Shown here: in pieces, positions 1,308 through 49,363 of the stretch
Layout: the number at the start of each line of letters is the position of its first letter
How positions within the stretch are numbered: position 1 is the stretch's first letter
DNA from: Oscillospiraceae bacterium
GTDB lineage: Bacteria; Bacillota; Clostridia; Oscillospirales; Ruminococcaceae
Direction of reading: 5' to 3'
Length of the DNA stretch: 64,000 nucleotides
Assembly: GCA_021201235.1 (NCBI GenBank)
Contig: JAJQFI010000024.1
Span: 266,657 to 330,656 of the forward strand
Translations under genes and position numbers: made by a program
The notes under the pieces: generated by a model
Told to the model about the DNA's origin: nothing
Database searches by the model: none
Seen by the model: the letters and a program-made list of their open reading frames with translations, nothing else

Positions 1308-3089
1308 TTATGTTTCTCCAAACAGGTCACTACGGTTTCCGTAAGTAGCATTGTATAGGTCGTATAGGCTTGCTTCGTCGGTTGTCATCCTGTTACTAAC
1401 TGTCTCATCGAAACCGTTATTTACAAGCGTGACTTTCAGTGTCCTATACAGATACTCAACCTCCGCCTCGTACTCGTAATACATTACTGTCAGTCGTCCC
1501 GTATATGGGTCAGTTACAAGCATTGTACCTATCTGCGTCTCAGTCCGTGTCCTGACTTCAACTTCTTCCGCTATTATTAGCGTATATTGCTGTAGGAACA
1601 GCGTTTGCAGTTCAGAAGCAACGTCCGCATAAGTGAACTCACCGTACTTTACCGTCAGGTAAGATATTAGCATATACGGGTCGTGATAGATGTCGTCTAT
1701 CTCGTAGCTGTACTCGTCATAACCGGGATAAGTGGCTACCGTATTGCAAATCTGCGTATACAGTGCCGTTTCCAGCGAGAGATAAGCACTTTCGACGGCA
1801 TAGATGTCATCGTCATCGCTTGAGTAGGTCGTGGAGATAAACGAGTTTTGGATGCCCTGAAAGATTGCAGTACAGCTTGTAAACATTGCGGCGACAATCA
1901 CGATTAGTATCATGATTGCACCCAACCCTATAAGAATGCCCTTGCTATTTTCTAAGACAGAATGTACCCACTCTTTGACCTTATCCGTTACCTTTGATGT
2001 CGCTTTCGCCGCATCTCCAGAAGCAGTTTTACCCTGTTTAGTCGCAGTATAGGCTTCCTTGTACTGATTCTTCTGCCAGACGTGCTTAACAGAACTTTTC
2101 TTTTCAGCAGTCTCCTTAGAAGATTTAACGCTGACAGAACCAGTTGTCTCTTGTCCGCCTTCTTCTGCGGAGAACTTGAGCCTCCCAGATGTACTCTCGG
2201 TTTCCGTCTCCTGTTTCACCTCACGGCGAGATTCGCTCTCCGTCTTGCGATTATTGGATTTGCCGGATACTTTGTGAACTCCGCTTTCCGTCAAGAGTTC
2301 CGCTTGGTGTAGACCCTCCACAGCACTGTTGTCCTGTTCGGCTTCATGAAGCTTTGTGTGAGCGTATCCCACTGCAACTGAAGTCGCTCCCGAAACCACT
2401 TTCTTGCCTATACCCATTCCTGCGCCATGAACCATGCCATCTTGTTCATCGTCAAAAGATAAGCGTCCGGGCTTTTTCCTTGCTTCTTCTTTTTGTTCTG
2501 TAGAACTTACTGAAGCTTTCTTTTTACCCTGCTTATCTTTCTGCTTTCGCTGTTCCGAATTTAATCGCTCCCGCTTGGATTTTCGGGTTATCTCACCCGT
2601 ATAATCCGTTAGGTCAATTTCCTCCGGAATCAAGCTTTCTGAAAGCCTCGACGGAGCTTCTAAAGCGTCGGTCTCCACTTCTGATTGAACATCTGACAAT
2701 ACCTCTGTTTGAGATTCTAAGGCTTCATCAGCCTTAGAAAAATCTCGCTTAGTTGGAATCTCAGCAATTTTCTCTTGAACTATCTCGCTGTCGCCGAGAA
2801 TTTCGCTTTCTACTTCCGTCTCAACCTCAGTTTCAGGGATTTCAGATTCTTCTTTGTTGGAAGTCATCTTATGGTACTCCTGAACCTGTTTCTTCTGCCG
2901 GTTATGCCGCATTTCAGAAGCTGTCTTAAGCGTTGCACCCACGGTGGAATGCTCGCTTACTTCTGTCATTCTTGCGGAATGAGAAGATAACTTTGTATCA
3001 GGCTCGGTCTCTGTAATCTCGCTTTCAGTAACAGGAGATTCTGTCTGCTCAGGCATCTTTAAAGTCTCATCAGCTTTAAGTTCCGCCAC
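1308..3089 (-). CDS. CD1108-like mobile-element membrane protein (long acidic/disordered N-terminus, one TM, conserved C-terminal domain)
   Basis: GTG start with SD GGAGGTGA. TM GILIGLGAIMILIVIVAAMF. The C-terminal Y/D/E-rich domain ends GNRSDLFGET. Lies immediately downstream of VirB4. Confidence 0.45.
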   Translation of the reverse strand: MAELKADETLKMPEQTESPVTESEITETEPDTKLSSHSARMTEVSEHSTVGATLKTASEMRHNRQKKQVQEYHKMTSNKEESEIPETEVETEVESEILGDSEIVQEKIAEIPTKRDFSKADEALESQTEVLSDVQSEVETDALEAPSRLSESLIPEEIDLTDYTGEITRKSKRERLNSEQRKQKDKQGKKKASVSSTEQKEEARKKPGRLSFDDEQDGMVHGAGMGIGKKVVSGATSVAVGYAHTKLHEAEQDNSAVEGLHQAELLTESGVHKVSGKSNNRKTESESRREVKQETETESTSGRLKFSAEEGGQETTGSVSVKSSKETAEKKSSVKHVWQKNQYKEAYTATKQGKTASGDAAKATSKVTDKVKEWVHSVLENSKGILIGLGAIMILIVIVAAMFTSCTAIFQGIQNSFISTTYSSDDDDIYAVESAYLSLETALYTQICNTVATYPGYDEYSYEIDDIYHDPYMLISYLTVKYGEFTYADVASELQTLFLQQYTLIIAEEVEVRTRTETQIGTMLVTDPYTGRLTVMYYEYEAEVEYLYRTLKVTLVNNGFDETVSNRMTTDEASLYDLYNATYGNRSDLFGET

Positions 3090-3105
3090 TTATCTCACCT
3101 CCGTC

Positions 3106-5883
3106 TCAGTTTTGCTTCTCAGCCTCTTGCCGTGCCGCTACATCTTCGGGTCTTGTAGACATGATTGAGTAGAGCTTCAGGGACTTATCGAAGTGATCCT
3201 TGAACGGGATAATGGTGTTACCATAAAACAAGAGTCCCTCGCCTGCACCGCTGTTTGTGACGTAAGATAGCTGATATGGGCTTATGTTCAGTTGCTTCGC
3301 CAGGATTTGTCTGTCTCCTGCCGCTTGGTTGAGCATCAGGATAAAGTCGCTGTTTTCAAAGATGTTCTCAATTTCACGGCTTGCGAGCAAATCCTTGATG
3401 TTCTGCGTGATTCCCGTCGGGATGCCTCCCCACTTTCTGAATCGCTTCCAGATTTCAACCGAGTATGCGGCAGTCTGTTCTTCCTTTAGAAGAAGATGGA
3501 ACTCGTCTATATAGTATCTGGTGGACTTATGCTCAGAACGGTTAATAGTCACTCTGTTCCAAACCTGATCCTGAATAATGAGCATTCCGAGCTTCTTTAA
3601 CTGCTTGCCGAGGTCTTTTATGTCATAGCAGACAATTCGGTTATCCAGTCTCACGTTTGTCCGGTGATTGAAGACTTTTAAAGAACCGTTGACATAGATT
3701 TCAAGTGCCGTTGCAATCCTCTGTGCCTGTGCTTCTTTCTGGTTTCTCAGACAGTTATACAGGTCACCGAGAACCGGCATATTCTCAGGAATCGGATTCT
3801 CAAAATATTTCTGGTAGACAAGTGGCAGACACCTGTCTATAACCGACTTTTCTTCCGCTTCTATGCCGTCTCTTGAACCCATAATAAGCTCGCAAAGCGA
3901 CAGGATGAAGTCAGACTTTACTCCGAGAGGGTTGTCGTCTTCCGAGTAGTTCATGTTGATGTCCATAGGGTTTATGTAATCGTGGCTTGAAGCAGATATA
4001 TGGATTACCTGTCCACCAAGCTCATGAACCAACGGATAGTACTCTCCCTCCGGGTCGCTTATTATGATGTCATCTTGAGTTACAAAGAACGCATTGGTTA
4101 TTTCTCTCTTCGCCGCAAATGATTTGCCACTGCCAGGTGTACCGAGGATAAGCCCGTTCGGGTTCTTAAGCCTCTTTCGGTCTACCATGATGACGTTATT
4201 GGAAAGAGCATTTAAGCCGTAGTACAGCGACTCGCCAGACATGAACAGCTCCTGCGTTGTGAACGGCACAAAGATTGCCGTTGATGTCGTTGTCAAACCC
4301 CGTTTAATCGGGATGTGATTTACTCCGAGGGGAAGACTGCTCATTAAGCCTTCTTCCTGCATATAGTCGAGACGTCTTAAAACACAGTTATACTTCTGAG
4401 CTATTCCCGCTATCTGGAATATGGAGTTTTCAAGCTCCTGCTTTGTCTTACCTGTGTTTAAGAACATTACCGTTACAAGGAACATCCTCTCGTTACGGGA
4501 CTGCAAGTCATCTAAAAGCTTCTTTGCTTCTCCTCCATAAGTCGCAAGGTCTGACGGGATGATGTCCATATCATATCCTGCGCGGACTGCCTTTTTCTGC
4601 TCCTCAATCTTCATACGGTTGATGTCCGTCACCTTGCTCTTTACAAGCTTTATAGCCTTTGCCTGATCAAGTGACTGGACGTGAAGATTGACAATCAGGT
4701 CCTTGTCTACATCCAAAAACTCGGCAAGCATTTTGTCAGTCAGTTCTGGTGCCATAATCTGCAGGTATGATGCCGCACCATAGGTATCGCCCATCATAAA
4801 GTCCTTGCCGGATTTAAAGAGAAAACTTGTCGGTGCAACAAAATCCTTTGTGCCTAACCCTGTTCTTAAAATCTGGTCGTAGGTAAACGTGAACGGTATC
4901 TGACAATCGGGATTGAAGGTCTCTCGCAAAATTGCAAGTCTCTCCGCTCCGTTCAGCGGATATGCCATTACTCCAAGAACCTTGAAGTTATTTAAGATGT
5001 CCGCTTCTATTCTTTCAAGCTTCGGTCTTGCTTTCTGCAAGCTTTCCGATTCAACAGAGAACGTAACATACTTGGATTTTACAAGTCCGTTGTTACCCTT
5101 TGCGAGCTGATTGCGGAGCATCTGAGCGTACTCCATCCGCACATCGTCATAGTCGTCGTTCTGTGGAGCAATACTGATTACATCCTCGTACTCCTTCATA
5201 TTGCTCCTGTGATTGACAAAGGATAACTGAAAGTGAATCGAGCTGTCGAAGTAGTTGAGGAAGTCGCACCAGCCCTCAAAGATGGTGTTCTTGTCCTCGT
5301 TCTGCGCCAACTGATAGTTGATGTCGTAGAAGCGGATAGTCTTTGAATAGGTATGTTCAGACACCCTACAGATGCCGTCCTTACCCATTTCCTTGTATGC
5401 AATGGTATCCTGAACGCTCAGGCGTTTCTTCTTAGCCGCCTTATCCTCCTTACGTCCGTTACCGCCGACAGGCTTTTTCCCACCGCCGTTGCTTTTAGCA
5501 GAGTTCTTCTTTTTTGAGGGGCTTCGCTTCTCTTTTACAGTGGATGTCTCTACTATAGGCTCCACGGTTGCGGCTTCGTACAGATTCTCTGTTTCGTAAC
5601 GCCGAACGGCGGGCTTACGGAATCGCACATTGATAACATTCTTTAAAACCTGTTCTAAGTGCAAGCCATCCTTCTCGTACATAGCAAAAAGAAACTCAGG
5701 TAGCATGAGAAGTACCATTCCTGTCGCCGCTGTACTTGTACCGAGATAATTCTTTGTAAGGAAATAGAACGGTATTCCAATCGCCGCGCCTATAGCAATG
5801 CAGACAATCTGTCTTAAGGTCAGGTTAAAAGCGACCTTGTTCTTAACCTTCGTCAGGTCTTTTGGAACCGCTACATATGCCAT
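3106..5883 (-). CDS. VirB4-family conjugal transfer ATPase with fused N-terminal PrgI/VirB3-like membrane domain
   Basis: 925 aa. Two N-terminal TMs, Walker A GTPGSGKSF, Walker B-like YYIDEFH. Confidence 0.9.
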   Translation of the reverse strand: MAYVAVPKDLTKVKNKVAFNLTLRQIVCIAIGAAIGIPFYFLTKNYLGTSTAATGMVLLMLPEFLFAMYEKDGLHLEQVLKNVINVRFRKPAVRRYETENLYEAATVEPIVETSTVKEKRSPSKKKNSAKSNGGGKKPVGGNGRKEDKAAKKKRLSVQDTIAYKEMGKDGICRVSEHTYSKTIRFYDINYQLAQNEDKNTIFEGWCDFLNYFDSSIHFQLSFVNHRSNMKEYEDVISIAPQNDDYDDVRMEYAQMLRNQLAKGNNGLVKSKYVTFSVESESLQKARPKLERIEADILNNFKVLGVMAYPLNGAERLAILRETFNPDCQIPFTFTYDQILRTGLGTKDFVAPTSFLFKSGKDFMMGDTYGAASYLQIMAPELTDKMLAEFLDVDKDLIVNLHVQSLDQAKAIKLVKSKVTDINRMKIEEQKKAVRAGYDMDIIPSDLATYGGEAKKLLDDLQSRNERMFLVTVMFLNTGKTKQELENSIFQIAGIAQKYNCVLRRLDYMQEEGLMSSLPLGVNHIPIKRGLTTTSTAIFVPFTTQELFMSGESLYYGLNALSNNVIMVDRKRLKNPNGLILGTPGSGKSFAAKREITNAFFVTQDDIIISDPEGEYYPLVHELGGQVIHISASSHDYINPMDINMNYSEDDNPLGVKSDFILSLCELIMGSRDGIEAEEKSVIDRCLPLVYQKYFENPIPENMPVLGDLYNCLRNQKEAQAQRIATALEIYVNGSLKVFNHRTNVRLDNRIVCYDIKDLGKQLKKLGMLIIQDQVWNRVTINRSEHKSTRYYIDEFHLLLKEEQTAAYSVEIWKRFRKWGGIPTGITQNIKDLLASREIENIFENSDFILMLNQAAGDRQILAKQLNISPYQLSYVTNSGAGEGLLFYGNTIIPFKDHFDKSLKLYSIMSTRPEDVAARQEAEKQN

Positions 5884-7301: not shown

Positions 7302-7417
7302 TTATCAAACCTAATATTCTTTTTCATCCATAGTCTCTCATTCTCTTTATCCTGCCTATCCCATCAGGGATCAGCCCGGATGGGTGGTAGCACCACCTTA
7401 TATCACCTTCCTTTCTT

Positions 7418-20775: not shown

Positions 20776-21429
20776 ATGACCATTCCAATGGCGCTCGTTG
20801 ATTACATTCCGGTTCTGATGTTTTTAATCGCCGCTGTAATCCTTCAAAGAGACCTTTACAAAAGCATGAGCAAGGGTGCGTTTGCGCTCTTCTCGGCGGG
20901 AACCATCACCGTTTTTGTCGCAGGATTCTATAAGGCAACGTGGAAGCTCCTCTATGCCGCAGGAGTCTGCGACTTCACATCCTTAAACAAATCCTTCTTC
21001 CCGATGCAGACGACCGGCTTCGTCCTCGCCGCACTCGGAATGCTCGCGCTCCTTTGCCACAAGCAGGGCACTGAAAATGGGGACAAGCTCAACTCGGTTG
21101 CGATTATTCCGACTCTCGGAATCCTCCTGACCGCCGCGGCACCGTCGGAATACTCCGGCACGATGATATTCGTCATGCTGATGGTCCTGGGCGTCCTCGT
21201 TCTCGATGTCGGACTCATAATCATCTCGGCAAGGCATAAGCAAACCCTCGCCGCCGTGATTTACGGAATCTCGTTCGTGTTCGTAATGGGCATGGGATAT
21301 CTTTCATCGAAGGATTTCGAACAGGCTTCGATGAACTGGATTGCGGAATTCACGAATGTATTAGGACAGGGAACATTCCTTTTGGCGACGTGGATGCTTC
21401 ACAAAAAGATGGTTGCGGAAAGCAAGTAA
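20776..21429 (+). CDS. Polytopic membrane protein, unknown function
   Basis: 217 aa with about 6 TMs; last gene of the co-directional four-gene cluster. Confidence 0.5.
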   Translation: MTIPMALVDYIPVLMFLIAAVILQRDLYKSMSKGAFALFSAGTITVFVAGFYKATWKLLYAAGVCDFTSLNKSFFPMQTTGFVLAALGMLALLCHKQGTENGDKLNSVAIIPTLGILLTAAAPSEYSGTMIFVMLMVLGVLVLDVGLIIISARHKQTLAAVIYGISFVFVMGMGYLSSKDFEQASMNWIAEFTNVLGQGTFLLATWMLHKKMVAESK

Positions 21430-21449
21430 AGATTTTCAGGCATAAGAAA

Positions 21450-21480
21450 CCCCACCGTAGAGATGCGGTGGGGTGATTTT
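21450..21480. terminator. Bidirectional terminator between convergent genes
   Basis: CCCCACCG-tagagatg-CGGTGGGG flanked by A-rich and T-rich tracts. Confidence 0.7.
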
Positions 21481-21483
21481 CGC

Positions 21484-22131
21484 TTACTTCGATATCTCCG
21501 GTGACGGCAGATACGAATACTCCCCTGAAAAAGCTACTTTTGACCAATCAATCTTTCTTGTAAAGTAAACTATCTTGGAATACTTTTCTTCACTTATTTT
21601 CTTCCTGTATGTAGCAATTACTCTGACATAATCTGAGACGTTATTTCTGAGGTCTTCTTTAAGAACCGTATTGGGAATGTACTCTCCGCTTTCTTCATCT
21701 TTTACAAATCCCACACATGCTTTGGTGCCGCCTGCAAGCTTTTCGGTGTACAGCTTCGGACGCATTGAGCTGAAATCTCCTACCATATTAGCCATCAGAC
21801 TTTTATTTATGATATACGGGAGAATATCAAGCTTCATCTGTGTGGTACCCTTGTCTGAAAATTCAAAGTCATCAGGGCTTAACCTATGTGCCAGACAACG
21901 CTCATAAAACTCCGCCGCAGAAAACGCCGGCATATCATCTCTATCATTTTTGACAGGTCTTAGCCCGGTCATGTGCATATAACTATAGTCGTGAAATGTC
22001 ACTTCAACATAGGAAATCCGCTTGTGCTTGTCCATGCAAACAAACAGGAGATTCCGATTATTCAGTTCATCCCGATACTTCTCAGCGCAGTTTACTACAG
22101 TGTCAATAGCATCTTTCTTAGAATACTGCAT
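21484..22131 (-). CDS. Stand-alone BECR-fold (PBECR4-like) putative RNase / toxin-like protein
   Basis: 215 aa from MQYSKKD (SD GGAGAA). Blocks ..LLFVCMDKHKRISYVEVTFHDYSYMHMTGL.., ..KLDILPYI.., ..KLAGGTKACVGF.. and ..IPNTVLKEDLRN.. match my recollection of PBECR4-domain proteins. The gene looks AT-richer than its flanks. Confidence 0.45.
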   Translation of the reverse strand: MQYSKKDAIDTVVNCAEKYRDELNNRNLLFVCMDKHKRISYVEVTFHDYSYMHMTGLRPVKNDRDDMPAFSAAEFYERCLAHRLSPDDFEFSDKGTTQMKLDILPYIINKSLMANMVGDFSSMRPKLYTEKLAGGTKACVGFVKDEESGEYIPNTVLKEDLRNNVSDYVRVIATYRKKISEEKYSKIVYFTRKIDWSKVAFSGEYSYLPSPEISK

Positions 22132-22140
22132 TGTGTTCTC

Positions 22141-22200
22141 CAAAAAAACTAAAATAAAAGGAGACAGCCCACGATACCGCGGTATCGCTCGACTTTCTCC
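22141..22200 (-). terminator. Intrinsic terminator between the repeated RNA and the RNase-like gene
   Basis: GGAGA..CGATACCGCGGTATCG..TCTCC stem (22160-22200) followed on the minus strand by UUUUAUUUUAGUUUUUUU (22141-22159). Confidence 0.7.
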
Positions 22201-22370
22201 TTGATAACTGGTTTTTCTGTCGTCCGCCGACTCTCAGTTCCTTCCGGCAAAGCCGTTCTACTGCATCACTTCGGGTTTTTCCGTTGCCCGCCAACTCTCC
22301 GGTCCAAAGCCCGGCATCACTTTCGGATTTTAGGTGCCAGTCGCACCGGTGGGATGTCGCCCACCTTCCT
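22141..22370 (-). ncRNA. Structured leader / candidate antitoxin RNA: two 5' hairpins, two tandem copies of a 52-64-nt module, then a terminator
   Basis: Module copies at 22274-22325 and 22210-22273 (plus-strand coordinates). Between the copies a hairpin changes from GUUG/CAAC to GUCG/CGAC, a compensatory pair. The overlapping 76-aa plus-strand ORF has no SD. Confidence 0.5.
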
Positions 22371-22376
22371 ACTTAC

Positions 22377-22405
22377 ATTATACCCAATAGGAAGTGAAAA
22401 AGCAA
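22377..22405 (-). promoter_or_regulatory. Sigma-A promoter driving the structured RNA
   Basis: Minus strand: TTGCTT (22400-22405), 17-nt spacer, TATAAT (22377-22382). Confidence 0.6.
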
Positions 22406-22452: not shown

Positions 22453-23196
22453 TCACTCTTCCCCATCCTCCTCCGGCATATCCCAGTTATGGTATACCTG
22501 CTGGACGTCGTCGTTATCGTCGAGGGCGTCGAGGAGGAGTCCCATAAGCTTGAGCTGGGTTTCGTCGGTGAGGGTTGTGTAAGTCGAAGGAATCATCGTG
22601 TCCTCTGCCGAGACGAGCTTATAGCCCATTCCGGAAAGCTTCTCCGAAATCTTATAGACATCGTTCGGGTCGGTGGAGACTTCGATAACCTCGTCTTCGA
22701 CGTTGAAGTCGTTCGCTCCGGCATCGAAGCAATCTTCCATCAGCTTGTCCTCGTCGACTCCGTCGTTCTCAAGGACGATTACGCCCTTGCGGGTGAACAT
22801 GAAGGAAACGCAACCGGTCGTGCCCATGTTTCCGCCGAACTTATCGAAGTAGTGGCGGACATCGGCGGCTGTACGGTTCTTGTTATCCGTCAGGCACTCG
22901 ACGATGATAGCGACTCCGCCGGGACCGTAGCCCTCATAGACCATCGTCTCGTAGCTGTTCTTGTCGTTGTCGCCGGCGGCTTTCTTGATAACACGCTCGA
23001 TGTTGTCGTTCGGGACGTTGTTAGCCTTCGCCTTGGCGATAAGGTCTCTCAGCTTGGAGTTGGAGCTCGGGTCAGGACCTCCCTCCTTGACGCAGACGGT
23101 AATCTCTCTGCCCATACGGGTGAAGACCTTCGCCTTCGCGCCGTCCGCAATTTCCTTCTTGCGCTTGATGTTGTTCCACTTTGAATGTCCTGACAT
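22453..23196 (-). CDS. yebC: YebC/PmpR-family transcriptional regulator
   Basis: MSGHSKWNNIKRKK... full-length 247 aa. Confidence 0.9.
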   Translation of the reverse strand: MSGHSKWNNIKRKKEIADGAKAKVFTRMGREITVCVKEGGPDPSSNSKLRDLIAKAKANNVPNDNIERVIKKAAGDNDKNSYETMVYEGYGPGGVAIIVECLTDNKNRTAADVRHYFDKFGGNMGTTGCVSFMFTRKGVIVLENDGVDEDKLMEDCFDAGANDFNVEDEVIEVSTDPNDVYKISEKLSGMGYKLVSAEDTMIPSTYTTLTDETQLKLMGLLLDALDDNDDVQQVYHNWDMPEEDGEE

Positions 23197-23208
23197 GTAA
23201 ATCTCTCC

Positions 23209-23619
23209 TTAGTTTAATGCTGAGTCCTGATTTGTCCAAATAATTTCAAATAATTCACGAACCCGCTCCTGCTGTCCCGTCAGATATAAGTATCCGAAAA
23301 GGCACTCGAGTGCGGTTGCTGTTCTGTATTCACGGACGCTTGAATGCCTCGGCGGAGTGATTCCACCGGCATTCCTTCCTCTGCGAAAGATGTCCGATTC
23401 CTCTTCCGAAAGAAGAGGCAATATTCTCTCGCATGAAGCCGACTGAAACTCACAGCAGACATACTTGACCGTGAGACTGTGGAGCTTTCCGGCGGGCATA
23501 TTGGCGCTTAAAATGAGCTTTTCTCTGACGAGCTGTTCATAAACGCTGTCGCCCATGAATGCAAGAGCCAACGGGCTATAGAGCCCTGCTTCCTTTTTAT
23601 CCAAAGCCTTGAACGACAT
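23209..23619 (-). CDS. mrnC: Mini-ribonuclease III
   Basis: ..LALAFMGDSVYE.. RNase III signature; start at MSFKAL with SD GGAGG. Confidence 0.8.
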   Translation of the reverse strand: MSFKALDKKEAGLYSPLALAFMGDSVYEQLVREKLILSANMPAGKLHSLTVKYVCCEFQSASCERILPLLSEEESDIFRRGRNAGGITPPRHSSVREYRTATALECLFGYLYLTGQQERVRELFEIIWTNQDSALN

Positions 23620-23633
23620 TCTATCCTCCAAAG

Positions 23634-24968
<1,335 letters not shown>

Positions 24969-24980
24969 TCAGCAAATCGC

Positions 24981-25265
24981 TTATTTTTCTACAGGATAAA
25001 CGCTTACCTGCTTCCTGTCACGACCCAATCTTTCAAACCTTACTACACCGTCTACCTTTGCATAGAGGGTATCATCTGAGCCGATGCCGACGTTGACGCC
25101 GGGATGGATATGCGTTCCTCTCTGGCGATAGAGGATGTTGCCCGCAGGTACGAACTGACCGTCAGCTCTCTTTGCGCCTAATCTTTTCGATTCGGACTCA
25201 CGACCGTTCTTGGTCGAGCTTGCTTCCTTTTTATGGGCGAAGAACTGCATACTTAATCTTAACAT
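24981..25265 (-). CDS. rpmA: 50S ribosomal protein L27 (with cleavable N-terminal extension)
   Basis: [13 protein letters not shown].. The Firmicutes-type propeptide ends in FF|A. Confidence 0.9.
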
Positions 25266-49276: not shown

Positions 49277-49363
49277 GCAGGTATGGCGGAATTGGCAGAC
49301 GCGCATGGTTCAGGTCCATGTGAGAGCAATTTCATGCAGGTTCAAGTCCTGTTACCTGCACCA
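49277..49363 (+). tRNA. tRNA-Leu (anticodon CAG), class II with long variable arm, encoded CCA
   Basis: Acceptor stem GCAGGTA/TACCTGC. Anticodon stem CATGG/CCATG with loop TTCAGGT. T-loop GGTTCAAGTCC. 3' ACCA. Confidence 0.9.

Follow-up and report, generated by a model that had tools for sequence, protein, structure and literature searches.

This study concerns a short locus in the genome of an Oscillospiraceae bacterium (GenBank assembly GCA_021201235.1, contig JAJQFI010000024.1), in which the gene for a PBECR4 protein, a predicted RNase, is preceded by a structured RNA of about 215 nt. The stretch of DNA analysed, referred to as the window, is 64,000 nt long, and coordinates are positions in it unless another record is named. 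The whole system occupies 22405–21484 on the minus strand and reads, in the direction of transcription, promoter, RNA, intrinsic terminator, Shine–Dalgarno (SD) sequence and open reading frame (ORF) (Table 1). The RNA between promoter and terminator has a core of about 175 nt and is built of two homologous modules; it is found upstream of the predicted RNase gene here, and in the same place at some 200 related loci.

Table 1. Coordinates of the RNA–PBECR4 locus and its parts in the window.
Feature	Position	Strand	Description
Sigma-70-type promoter	22377–22405	minus	−35 TTGCTT 22405–22400, 17-nt spacer, −10 TATAAT 22382–22377
P0, 5' hairpin	22348–22365	minus	GGUGGG / CGACAU / CCCACC
H0, hairpin	22333–22347	minus	GGUG stem, 7-nt loop CGACUGG, CACC
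Outer pseudoknot	22342–22337 with 22211–22206	minus	H0 loop GACUGG with 3' tail; closes the fold
Module 1	22276–22332	minus	linker UAAAAU, S1, GAAAGUGAUGC, Pa1, GAGA, H1, A-rich tract
S1	22327–22324	minus	UCCG; pairs with H2 loop
Pa1, hairpin	22314–22299	minus	module 1
H1, hairpin	22295–22283	minus	GUUG-GCGGG-CAAC; module 1
A-rich tract	22282–22276	minus	GGAAAAA; end of module 1
Module 2	22212–22275	minus	S2, AAGUGAUG, Pa2, AGA, H2, A-rich tract
S2	22275–22272	minus	CCCG; pairs with H1 loop CGGG 22290–22287 as a local H-type pseudoknot
Pa2, extended hairpin	22263–22235	minus	module 2
H2, hairpin	22231–22219	minus	GUCG-GCGGA-CGAC; loop CGGA 22226–22223 pairs with S1
A-rich tract	22218–22212	minus	AGAAAAA; end of module 2
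3' tail	22206–22211	minus	CCAGUU; partner of H0 loop
Intrinsic terminator	22142–22201	minus	long stem 22201–22159, inner hairpin GAUAC-CGCG-GUAUC, U-tract UUUAUUUUAGUUUUUUU 22158–22142
SD and ORF	21484–22141	minus	SD GGAG 22141–22138, ATG 22131, stop 21486–21484, 215 aa
Bidirectional terminator hairpin	21449–21474	both	ends the islet; common to the convergent membrane-protein gene 20776–21429

An earlier reading of these letters, made without database searches (the sequence-only reading), had proposed a promoter, a long-stem terminator, an ORF richer in AT than its surroundings and a resemblance of its product to stand-alone PBECR4 nucleases, and all four proposals are borne out. The −10 box falls at the matching position in 61 aligned relatives, in which the −35 box is often a full TTGACA; in the window it matches 3 of 6 bases, and a consensus promoter scanner passed over it. 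Judging from the sequence, transcription would start near 22370. The terminator appears in both the minimum-free-energy and the centroid structure computed by RNAfold for the window sequence. Among the 61 relatives, its consensus stem by RNAalifold comprises 16 pairs, with covariation in nearly every pair, and it is kept with covariation in at least 60 relatives. A simple terminator scanner missed it, the stem being long and imperfect. Its loop is almost always an UNCG-like tetraloop closed by C-G (UGCG, UACG or CGCG; columns 278–281 of the alignment A2 described below), and this cap is unusually uniform although the sequence of the stem varies freely. The terminator stem is separated from the ATG by a U-rich spacer of 28 nt that includes the SD, which leaves no room for a second promoter between terminator and ORF. 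The ORF itself has a GC content of 40.7%, against 49.6% for the whole window.

The 215-aa protein matches the Pfam family PBECR4 (PF18813) with an E-value of 2e-32 and 113.6 bits (cutoff 27), over profile positions 2–187 of 188. By their published definition, PBECR domains are predicted to be endoRNases that work without a metal (PMC5512222), and the protein is accordingly described here as a predicted BECR-fold endoRNase and putative toxin. The 126 close homologs are all PBECR4 and all come from Clostridia-type genomes and metagenomes. The wider family forms 1811 clusters at 50% identity, nearly all of them stand-alone proteins of 200–230 aa; most belong to gut Clostridia, and members also occur in Erysipelotrichia, a Gastranaerophilales metagenome-assembled genome (MAG) and prophages. 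Conserved polar residues are Glu43, His53, Thr55, Lys100, Asn154, Thr155, Arg162 and Arg176, among which His53 is nearly invariant and Thr55 and Thr155 are invariant. BECR-fold endoRNases are structurally akin to Barnase, EndoU, colicin E5/D or RelE and have an active site of His/Arg plus Thr/Ser. The conserved residues are compatible with an RNase, and prove nothing. An AlphaFold2 model of the protein has a predicted local distance difference test (pLDDT) score of 90.6, and two viral proteins without names share its fold.

The sequence-only reading had also held that the toxin candidate is unrelated to ToxN, CptN and TenpN, and the searches agree. Pfam returned PBECR4 as the only family, with no match to an Abi_2 domain; a profile search of the sequences in the Protein Data Bank (PDB) with PBECR4 found nothing; and Foldseek against the PDB returned neither a ToxN nor a CptN structure, nor any link to AbiF. 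PHROGs holds no meaningful family for the protein, and the plasmid collection has no homolog of it.

The RNA was recognised by comparison of the 300 nt upstream of the PBECR4 genes in 70 genome loci fetched by protein similarity. The same leader stands upstream of nearly all homologs, down to about 33% protein identity, and it carries abundant covariation; the check that the sequence-only reading had suggested for its upstream RNA, conservation next to homologs of the protein, thus speaks for it. With 56 leaders as the basis of a covariance model, the RNA is detected ahead of PBECR4 homologs at 65 of these 70 loci and in all six viral-contig loci found by protein, and also in Enterocloster bolteae (L208), a prophage locus, and Erysipelothrix phage phi1605. 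The window has exactly one copy (22204–22348, minus strand, 128.7 bits). Four of the five genome loci without a match are contig-truncated or partial: in two (L066 and L067) similarity begins at the contig end, in L037 the upstream sequence is just 189 nt long, and in L070 a partial RNA abuts a gene fragment. The fifth is L022, which is weighed below with other points of its kind.

The converse search, with the RNA pattern only, matched 11 viral and at least 120 metagenome loci, of which 119 had enough downstream sequence to be evaluated. Among the matches listed, a PBECR4 gene lies within 1.5 kb downstream in 101 of these 119. One of the 101 (L141) came up as a candidate for a different downstream gene, which was rejected: it is a distant PBECR4 seen by Pfam alone (E = 8e-41). 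In the remaining 18, the RNA is an orphan whose neighbouring gene is deleted or degraded; six-frame searches of the orphan loci found no PBECR4 gene hidden elsewhere, and no second gene family recurs downstream of the RNA among the matches listed. The linkage is thus reciprocal and exclusive, and the RNA is very probably a dedicated partner of PBECR4.

The fold of the RNA was scored on an alignment of 61 leaders made by MAFFT with no structure information (A2), using 12 helices. In this alignment, 93.0% of cells pair, compared with 80.4% in shuffles (none of 500 as high), and the covariation score is 0.404, compared with 0.198 for shuffled alignments and 0.09–0.12 when the partners are slid. 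Three of the helices are pseudoknots. The helix between the H0 loop and the 3' tail is 99.7% paired in A2, and 5 of its 6 pairs have changed on both sides (98.7% and 6 of 6 in the model-based alignment), that between the H1 loop and S2 is 99.6% paired with 4 of 4 pairs changed, and that between the H2 loop and S1 is 100% paired with 3 of 4 pairs changed (both A2). The model-based alignment, with 78 matches, has 99.4% of cells paired and changes on both sides in 21 of 21 pairs; the module 1 helices are 99.6–100% paired in it, each pair being changed on both sides. RNAalifold independently recovers the long-range helix, the H1-loop/S2 helix and the 16-pair terminator. Of 136 distinct RNAs, 123 have a gene downstream, and in these at least 99% of the cells of the pseudoknot helices are paired; for the 13 orphans the figure is 94–100%. 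Divergent members have altogether other letters at the equivalent sites, as in the phi1605 RNA with UUGG/CCAA, CAAG/CUUG and GCUUGA/UCAAGC. For the window sequence taken singly, the fold z-score is modest (−2.2).

These helices define an architecture with some symmetry. Each small hairpin is a 4-bp stem with a 5-nt loop, followed by R-R-A-A-A-A-A with invariant A positions, so that H1 and S2 together form a classic H-type pseudoknot whose third loop is A-rich. Between H0 and H2 the partners are exchanged, in that the downstream strand of each pairs with the loop of the other, and this exchange closes the modules into one pseudo-twofold, domain-swapped unit. The sequence-only reading had placed two stable 5' hairpins at 22365–22348 and 22347–22333. 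The positions stand, but the hairpins are not separate elements: the loop of the second pairs with the 6 nt after module 2, so that the whole region is one single fold. P0, the first of the two, likely serves as a 5' stabiliser; 6 of its 6 pairs are changed on both sides in the MAFFT alignment, and only 76% of cells are paired since the stem length varies among relatives.

That the two modules are tandem copies of one another, as had been proposed from the letters, is confirmed by a repeat search, which aligns segments of 32 nt (81% identity) and 18 nt (83%) that recur at distances of 64 and 51 nt, and the compensatory difference noted then between their small hairpins (GUUG/CAAC and GUCG/CGAC) is real. 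Tandem Repeats Finder detected no repeat in the window, owing to the divergence of the copies and to an insertion of 12 nt in module 2. In other loci, the repetition is plainer: the program is positive in 36 of 140 distinct RNAs, with periods of 50–54 nt, and in L042 it finds a perfect 52-nt unit in 2.1 copies. The identity of the two modules within a locus averages 0.75, reaches 1.00 and is at least 0.85 in 20 loci, and module 1 of one locus compared with module 2 of another gives a mean of 0.66. The higher value within loci indicates that the modules are homogenised there, i.e., that they undergo concerted evolution. None of the 140 distinct RNAs has more than two modules.

The systems recur in mobile, prophage and defence-type surroundings. 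One copy lies between a prophage lysis cassette and an integrase, and another adjoins genes for methyltransferases, RhuM and ParA. The phi1605 copy adjoins a type III restriction res subunit and a site-specific recombinase. Its RNA is complete (MF172979.1, about 84460–84705, equivalent to L213 2720–2965) and unannotated in the GenBank record, where it lies between the res-subunit gene and a gene labelled 'hypothetical protein', whose product is a homolog of PBECR4. Two paralogous RNA–PBECR4 systems coexist in some MAGs, and PBECR4 genes are seen to decay to fragments while the RNA persists. The window locus is an AT-rich single-gene islet with the membrane-protein gene on one side and yebC on the other. 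Its neighbours at 22453–25265 (minus strand) are housekeeping genes, namely yebC, a mini-RNase III-like gene, obg and the gene for ribosomal protein L27.

Several arrangements depart from the standard one. In L085, two RNA copies stand back to back and divergent, at 1544–1689 (minus strand) and 2009–2141 (plus strand), about 320 nt apart. There is no PBECR4 ORF anywhere in this locus. Both RNAs retain intact pseudoknot pairs; promoter and terminator are preserved in one of them, and in the other the terminator is degraded. The same arrangement is seen in L087, L091, L103, L126, L146, L166, L181 and L193, and represents a recurrent locus of human-gut metagenomes. Such back-to-back RNAs may be remnants, or may be RNAs retained as antitoxins. 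Extra copies also occur beside complete systems. In L029, a second RNA copy (3840–3977) directly downstream is followed by frameshifted PBECR4 fragments, L021 has a partial copy directly downstream (3928–4014), and L209 has a partial copy upstream of the complete RNA (7304–7403), all of which indicate tandem duplication and decay of the system. Three loci (L053, L057 and L064, about 2670–2878) have a variant leader of approximately 200 nt with a different, longer 5' domain and one recognisable module, scoring 44–49 bits with the covariance model. On the viral contig L073, a Fic/Doc-family gene (PF02661, E = 7e-15) lies about 260 nt downstream of an orphan RNA, which places this RNA in a prophage accessory region rich in toxin–antitoxin genes.

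By its architectural definition, a type III toxin–antitoxin system has a terminator before the toxin gene and tandem repeats further upstream (Blower 2012, as quoted in PMC12283969). By function, it has a toxic protein, usually a sequence-specific endoRNase, and an RNA that binds and neutralises this toxin and whose precursor the toxin processes. At the locus in question, a Rho-independent terminator directly precedes the putative toxin gene, tandem direct repeats (imperfect in the window, perfect in L042) lie between promoter and terminator, and, as the sequence reads, there is one promoter upstream of the repeats and none between terminator and gene. In addition, the RNA has a pseudoknot fold with an A-rich stretch, and H-type pseudoknots with A-rich loops are the hallmark of ToxI, CptI and TenpI (PMC12283969). 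The layout that had suggested a type III-like system to the sequence-only reading is thereby supported. We consider it probable, without being assured, that the locus represents a new family of type III-like toxin–antitoxin or abortive-infection systems, with the RNA as antitoxin and PBECR4 as toxin.

How such a system would work can be outlined as follows. A constitutive promoter would give rise to an RNA of approximately 215 nt that ends at a strong but leaky intrinsic terminator; the PBECR4 ORF would be carried on read-through transcripts only, and the RNA would therefore be in large excess over the protein. The RNA folds as a compact pseudo-twofold unit of two modules of approximately 52 nt, each offering a variable hairpin and a small 4-bp hairpin, then an A-rich tract, and three pseudoknot helices lock the modules, with the H1-loop/S2 helix as a local one and the H2-loop/S1 and H0-loop/3' tail helices as the domain-swapped pair. 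In this form, it would bind PBECR4 directly and keep it inactive, the likely stoichiometry being one protomer per module, or one dimer per RNA. Should the RNA supply drop or the RNA be degraded, for example upon host transcription shut-off in phage infection, the freed PBECR4 would cleave cellular or phage RNA and growth would stop. The RNase activity and toxicity of PBECR4, its direct binding and neutralisation, the stoichiometry and the trigger are what we infer here; the layout, the fold, the linkage, the repeat character of the modules and the mobile, prophage and defence-type surroundings are observed.

Having put forward the antitoxin reading, we would note several points that weigh against it. 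The most direct is L022 (Pseudoflavonifractor sp. MSJ-37, 2851–3705), an apparently intact PBECR4 homolog that is 46% identical and keeps the conserved motifs, and for which the RNA is truly absent from the 160-nt upstream region, a spacer shared with a divergent NUDIX gene. It is the only clear 'toxin' without an RNA, and an obligate toxin would require there an RNA in trans or an inactive protein. As for the repeats, the window modules are only 66% identical overall, with the same divergence in the window's clade, and the module number is fixed at two, the modules being interlocked with a 5' partial unit. In this respect, the RNA resembles the single folded domains of riboswitches and protein-binding leaders more than it does an array that is cut into units. 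As for the protein, the RNase activity of PBECR4 comes from a published prediction (PMC5512222). Foldseek against the PDB gives no significant relative, its best E-value being 0.14, with RelE at a probability of approximately 0.1, and neither PADLOC nor NCBIfam holds a family for the protein.

The single-domain appearance raises the question of whether the RNA is a purely cis-acting leader, i.e., a riboswitch for a ligand or an autoregulatory leader bound by PBECR4, which sets read-through and has no antitoxin role. Transcriptional riboswitches are usually built in this way, with one highly conserved pseudoknotted domain, closed by a long-range helix, immediately before a terminator. Pseudo-twofold RNAs are known among riboswitches, and a module number that is always two fits as well. 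Even the RNA of the AbiF/RCd22 system, an antitoxin, lowers downstream expression 17-fold in cis (PMC12373285). The terminator, however, lies outside the folded domain, from which it is separated by a linker of 3–6 nt, and when all conserved 4-bp helices were scanned exhaustively, none gave the terminator arms an alternative partner, apart from trivial pairings between the invariant GUUGGC boxes and the GCGG loop. The leader has no Rfam match at the gathering threshold or at a relaxed one, where only noise appears; a confident match to a known riboswitch class was among the outcomes that, to the sequence-only reading, would have refuted its proposal. A Twister-P5 match of 18 bits, below threshold and on the plus (wrong) strand, was set aside as noise. 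The sole gathering-level match in the window is a tRNA at 49277–49360 (plus strand). A cis-acting role also sits uneasily with an RNA that is tied to one protein family among the matches listed, with a spacer between terminator and ORF that tolerates inserts of 60–330 nt, and with gene-less copies that keep the fold, of which at least one (L085) keeps its own promoter and terminator. Nor would it call for modules homogenised within loci up to 100% identity, variable hairpin included, and metabolite control would hardly be expected for a predicted nuclease that is encoded in prophage accessory regions. The riboswitch or attenuator explanation is weakened because of the one-family association, the missing alternative pairing and the insertion-tolerant spacer, and we regard it as unlikely, although it is the alternative that we take most seriously. 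Several of the Lachnospiraceae spacers (L003, L004, L037) share a GC-rich, hairpin-forming insert containing '...GCAGGAGCGCGAGAGG...' between terminator and start codon, which resembles a repetitive extragenic palindromic (REP) element or a miniature inverted-repeat transposable element (MITE).

The same strict reciprocal linkage would also be expected if the RNA were a required subunit or a substrate of PBECR4 instead of its inhibitor, whether as a ribonucleoprotein (RNP) scaffold, activator or targeter, or as a precursor that PBECR4 processes into small RNAs. The variable Pa1 and Pa2 hairpins on an otherwise invariant scaffold, and the linkage of AbiF-type RNA–toxin pairs to the origin of Cas13, speak for such a role, and the existence of a protein without RNA (L022) and of RNAs without protein is easier to understand if neither is harmful alone. 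A terminator between RNA and gene, which gives an excess of RNA, nevertheless fits an inhibitor better than a stoichiometric cofactor. Moreover, the Pa loops have no guide-like hypervariable segments or signs of spacer acquisition, a locus often has two Pa hairpins that do not differ at all, and we know of no precedent for an RNA-dependent BECR nuclease. We therefore hold this explanation to be rather improbable. About equally doubtful is a bolder idea in which the RNA is a subunit of a stable RNP immune sensor. In that case, the domain-swapped double-pseudoknot scaffold would hold two PBECR4 protomers, a phage that perturbs the Pa hairpins or the integrity of the RNA would cause release of the nuclease, and orphan copies, such as the back-to-back pair of a common human-gut species, would be kept as immunity against the PBECR4 effectors that phages inject in polyvalent proteins. 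Finally, the negative Tandem Repeats Finder result and the modest single-sequence z-score in the window could be taken to mean that the repeats and hairpins arose by chance or are ordinary leader structure. The same RNA is found at more than 200 loci and each of its helices shows covariation, which refutes this idea, and we give it next to no credence.

In the literature on PBECR4, PBECR and type III toxin–antitoxin systems with BECR, we found no description of such an RNA, nor of PBECR4 as the toxin of a toxin–antitoxin system. The organising principle of the locus is known, and the RNA and the toxin family are both new for such systems. Families with RNA antitoxins are few, comprising ToxIN, CptIN, TenpIN and, more recently, AvcID and AbiF/RCd22. 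If the antitoxin reading is right, one more would be added, with a predicted BECR-fold RNase as toxin and a previously undescribed RNA fold that is unusually well determined, consisting of a local H-type pseudoknot and a domain-swapped pseudoknot pair. It would provide the first functional handle on stand-alone PBECR4 proteins, and a simple two-part system for testing the RNA-mediated control of a nuclease in the gut microbiome. The covariance model also allows annotation of an RNA for which even phage records in GenBank have no annotation at present.

In layout, the nearest known system is AbiF/RCd22, a type III-like system of the Clostridioides difficile prophage phi027 (PLoS Genet 2025, PMC12373285 / bioRxiv 10.1101/2025.04.15.648962). 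Both have a promoter (SigA in that case), a noncoding RNA with two structured motifs, a Rho-independent terminator, a ribosome-binding site and the toxin gene, with no promoter in between. AbiF/RCd22 produces a short terminated RNA, uncut between the motifs, as well as a read-through mRNA, and the RNA has been shown by experiment to neutralise the toxin both when supplied in cis and when supplied in trans (PMC12373285). It is prophage-borne in a gut Firmicute, and the occurrence in gut bacteria and prophages is related here. The two differ in their components. The toxin is Abi_2/HEPN-like there and PBECR4 here, and the RNA there consists of two simple abiF hairpin motifs (RF03085), for which the window has no match even at E ≤ 10, whereas the RNA described here is larger and has three pseudoknot helices. 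The function of AbiF/RCd22 is experimental, while the present system is known from its sequence.

CptIN is known from Lachnospiraceae of the gut, and its CptI RNAs and toxin assemble into a closed 2:2 complex; the repeats of CptIN and TenpIN measure 37–45 nt. These systems share with the present one the order of promoter, about two to three tandem repeats, terminator and toxin gene. Their repeats fold into H-type pseudoknots whose A-stretch touches the neighbouring stem, and the largest tenpIN clusters of E. coli have two non-identical repeats (PMC12283969). Their toxins are ToxN-like, a similarity that neither Pfam nor Foldseek gives for PBECR4, and their repeats are processed to units, whereas the units here are 52–53 nt long and covalently linked, pair with each other, and have an additional 5' partial unit that closes them.

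ToxIN of Pectobacterium atrosepticum and of E. coli combines RNA repeats, a terminator, an endoRNase toxin and a pseudoknotted antitoxin, of which the last two are predicted and putative, respectively, in our case. It has an abortive-infection role, and its terminator sets the RNA-to-toxin ratio. ToxI has 5.5 repeats; these are nearly identical, 36 nt long and cut by ToxN to units that enter a 3:3 assembly, in contrast to the two interlocked modules here, and the fold of the toxin is unrelated to PBECR4. The RNA of AvcID, a system of Vibrio cholerae, is not known to be a tandem pseudoknot array. In AvcID, a small RNA antitoxin neutralises a deoxycytidylate deaminase toxin and takes part in phage defence, by which type III systems are seen to extend beyond ToxN-like RNases (PMC10511110). 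As for PBECR itself, it has been described in phage polyvalent proteins, as an effector domain that is injected and acts offensively; the same study noted that it also occurs solo in phages and mobile elements, and mentions no RNA associated with it (Iyer et al. 2017, PMC5512222). In the loci described here, by contrast, PBECR4 stands alone as a protein and is permanently coupled to a dedicated RNA.

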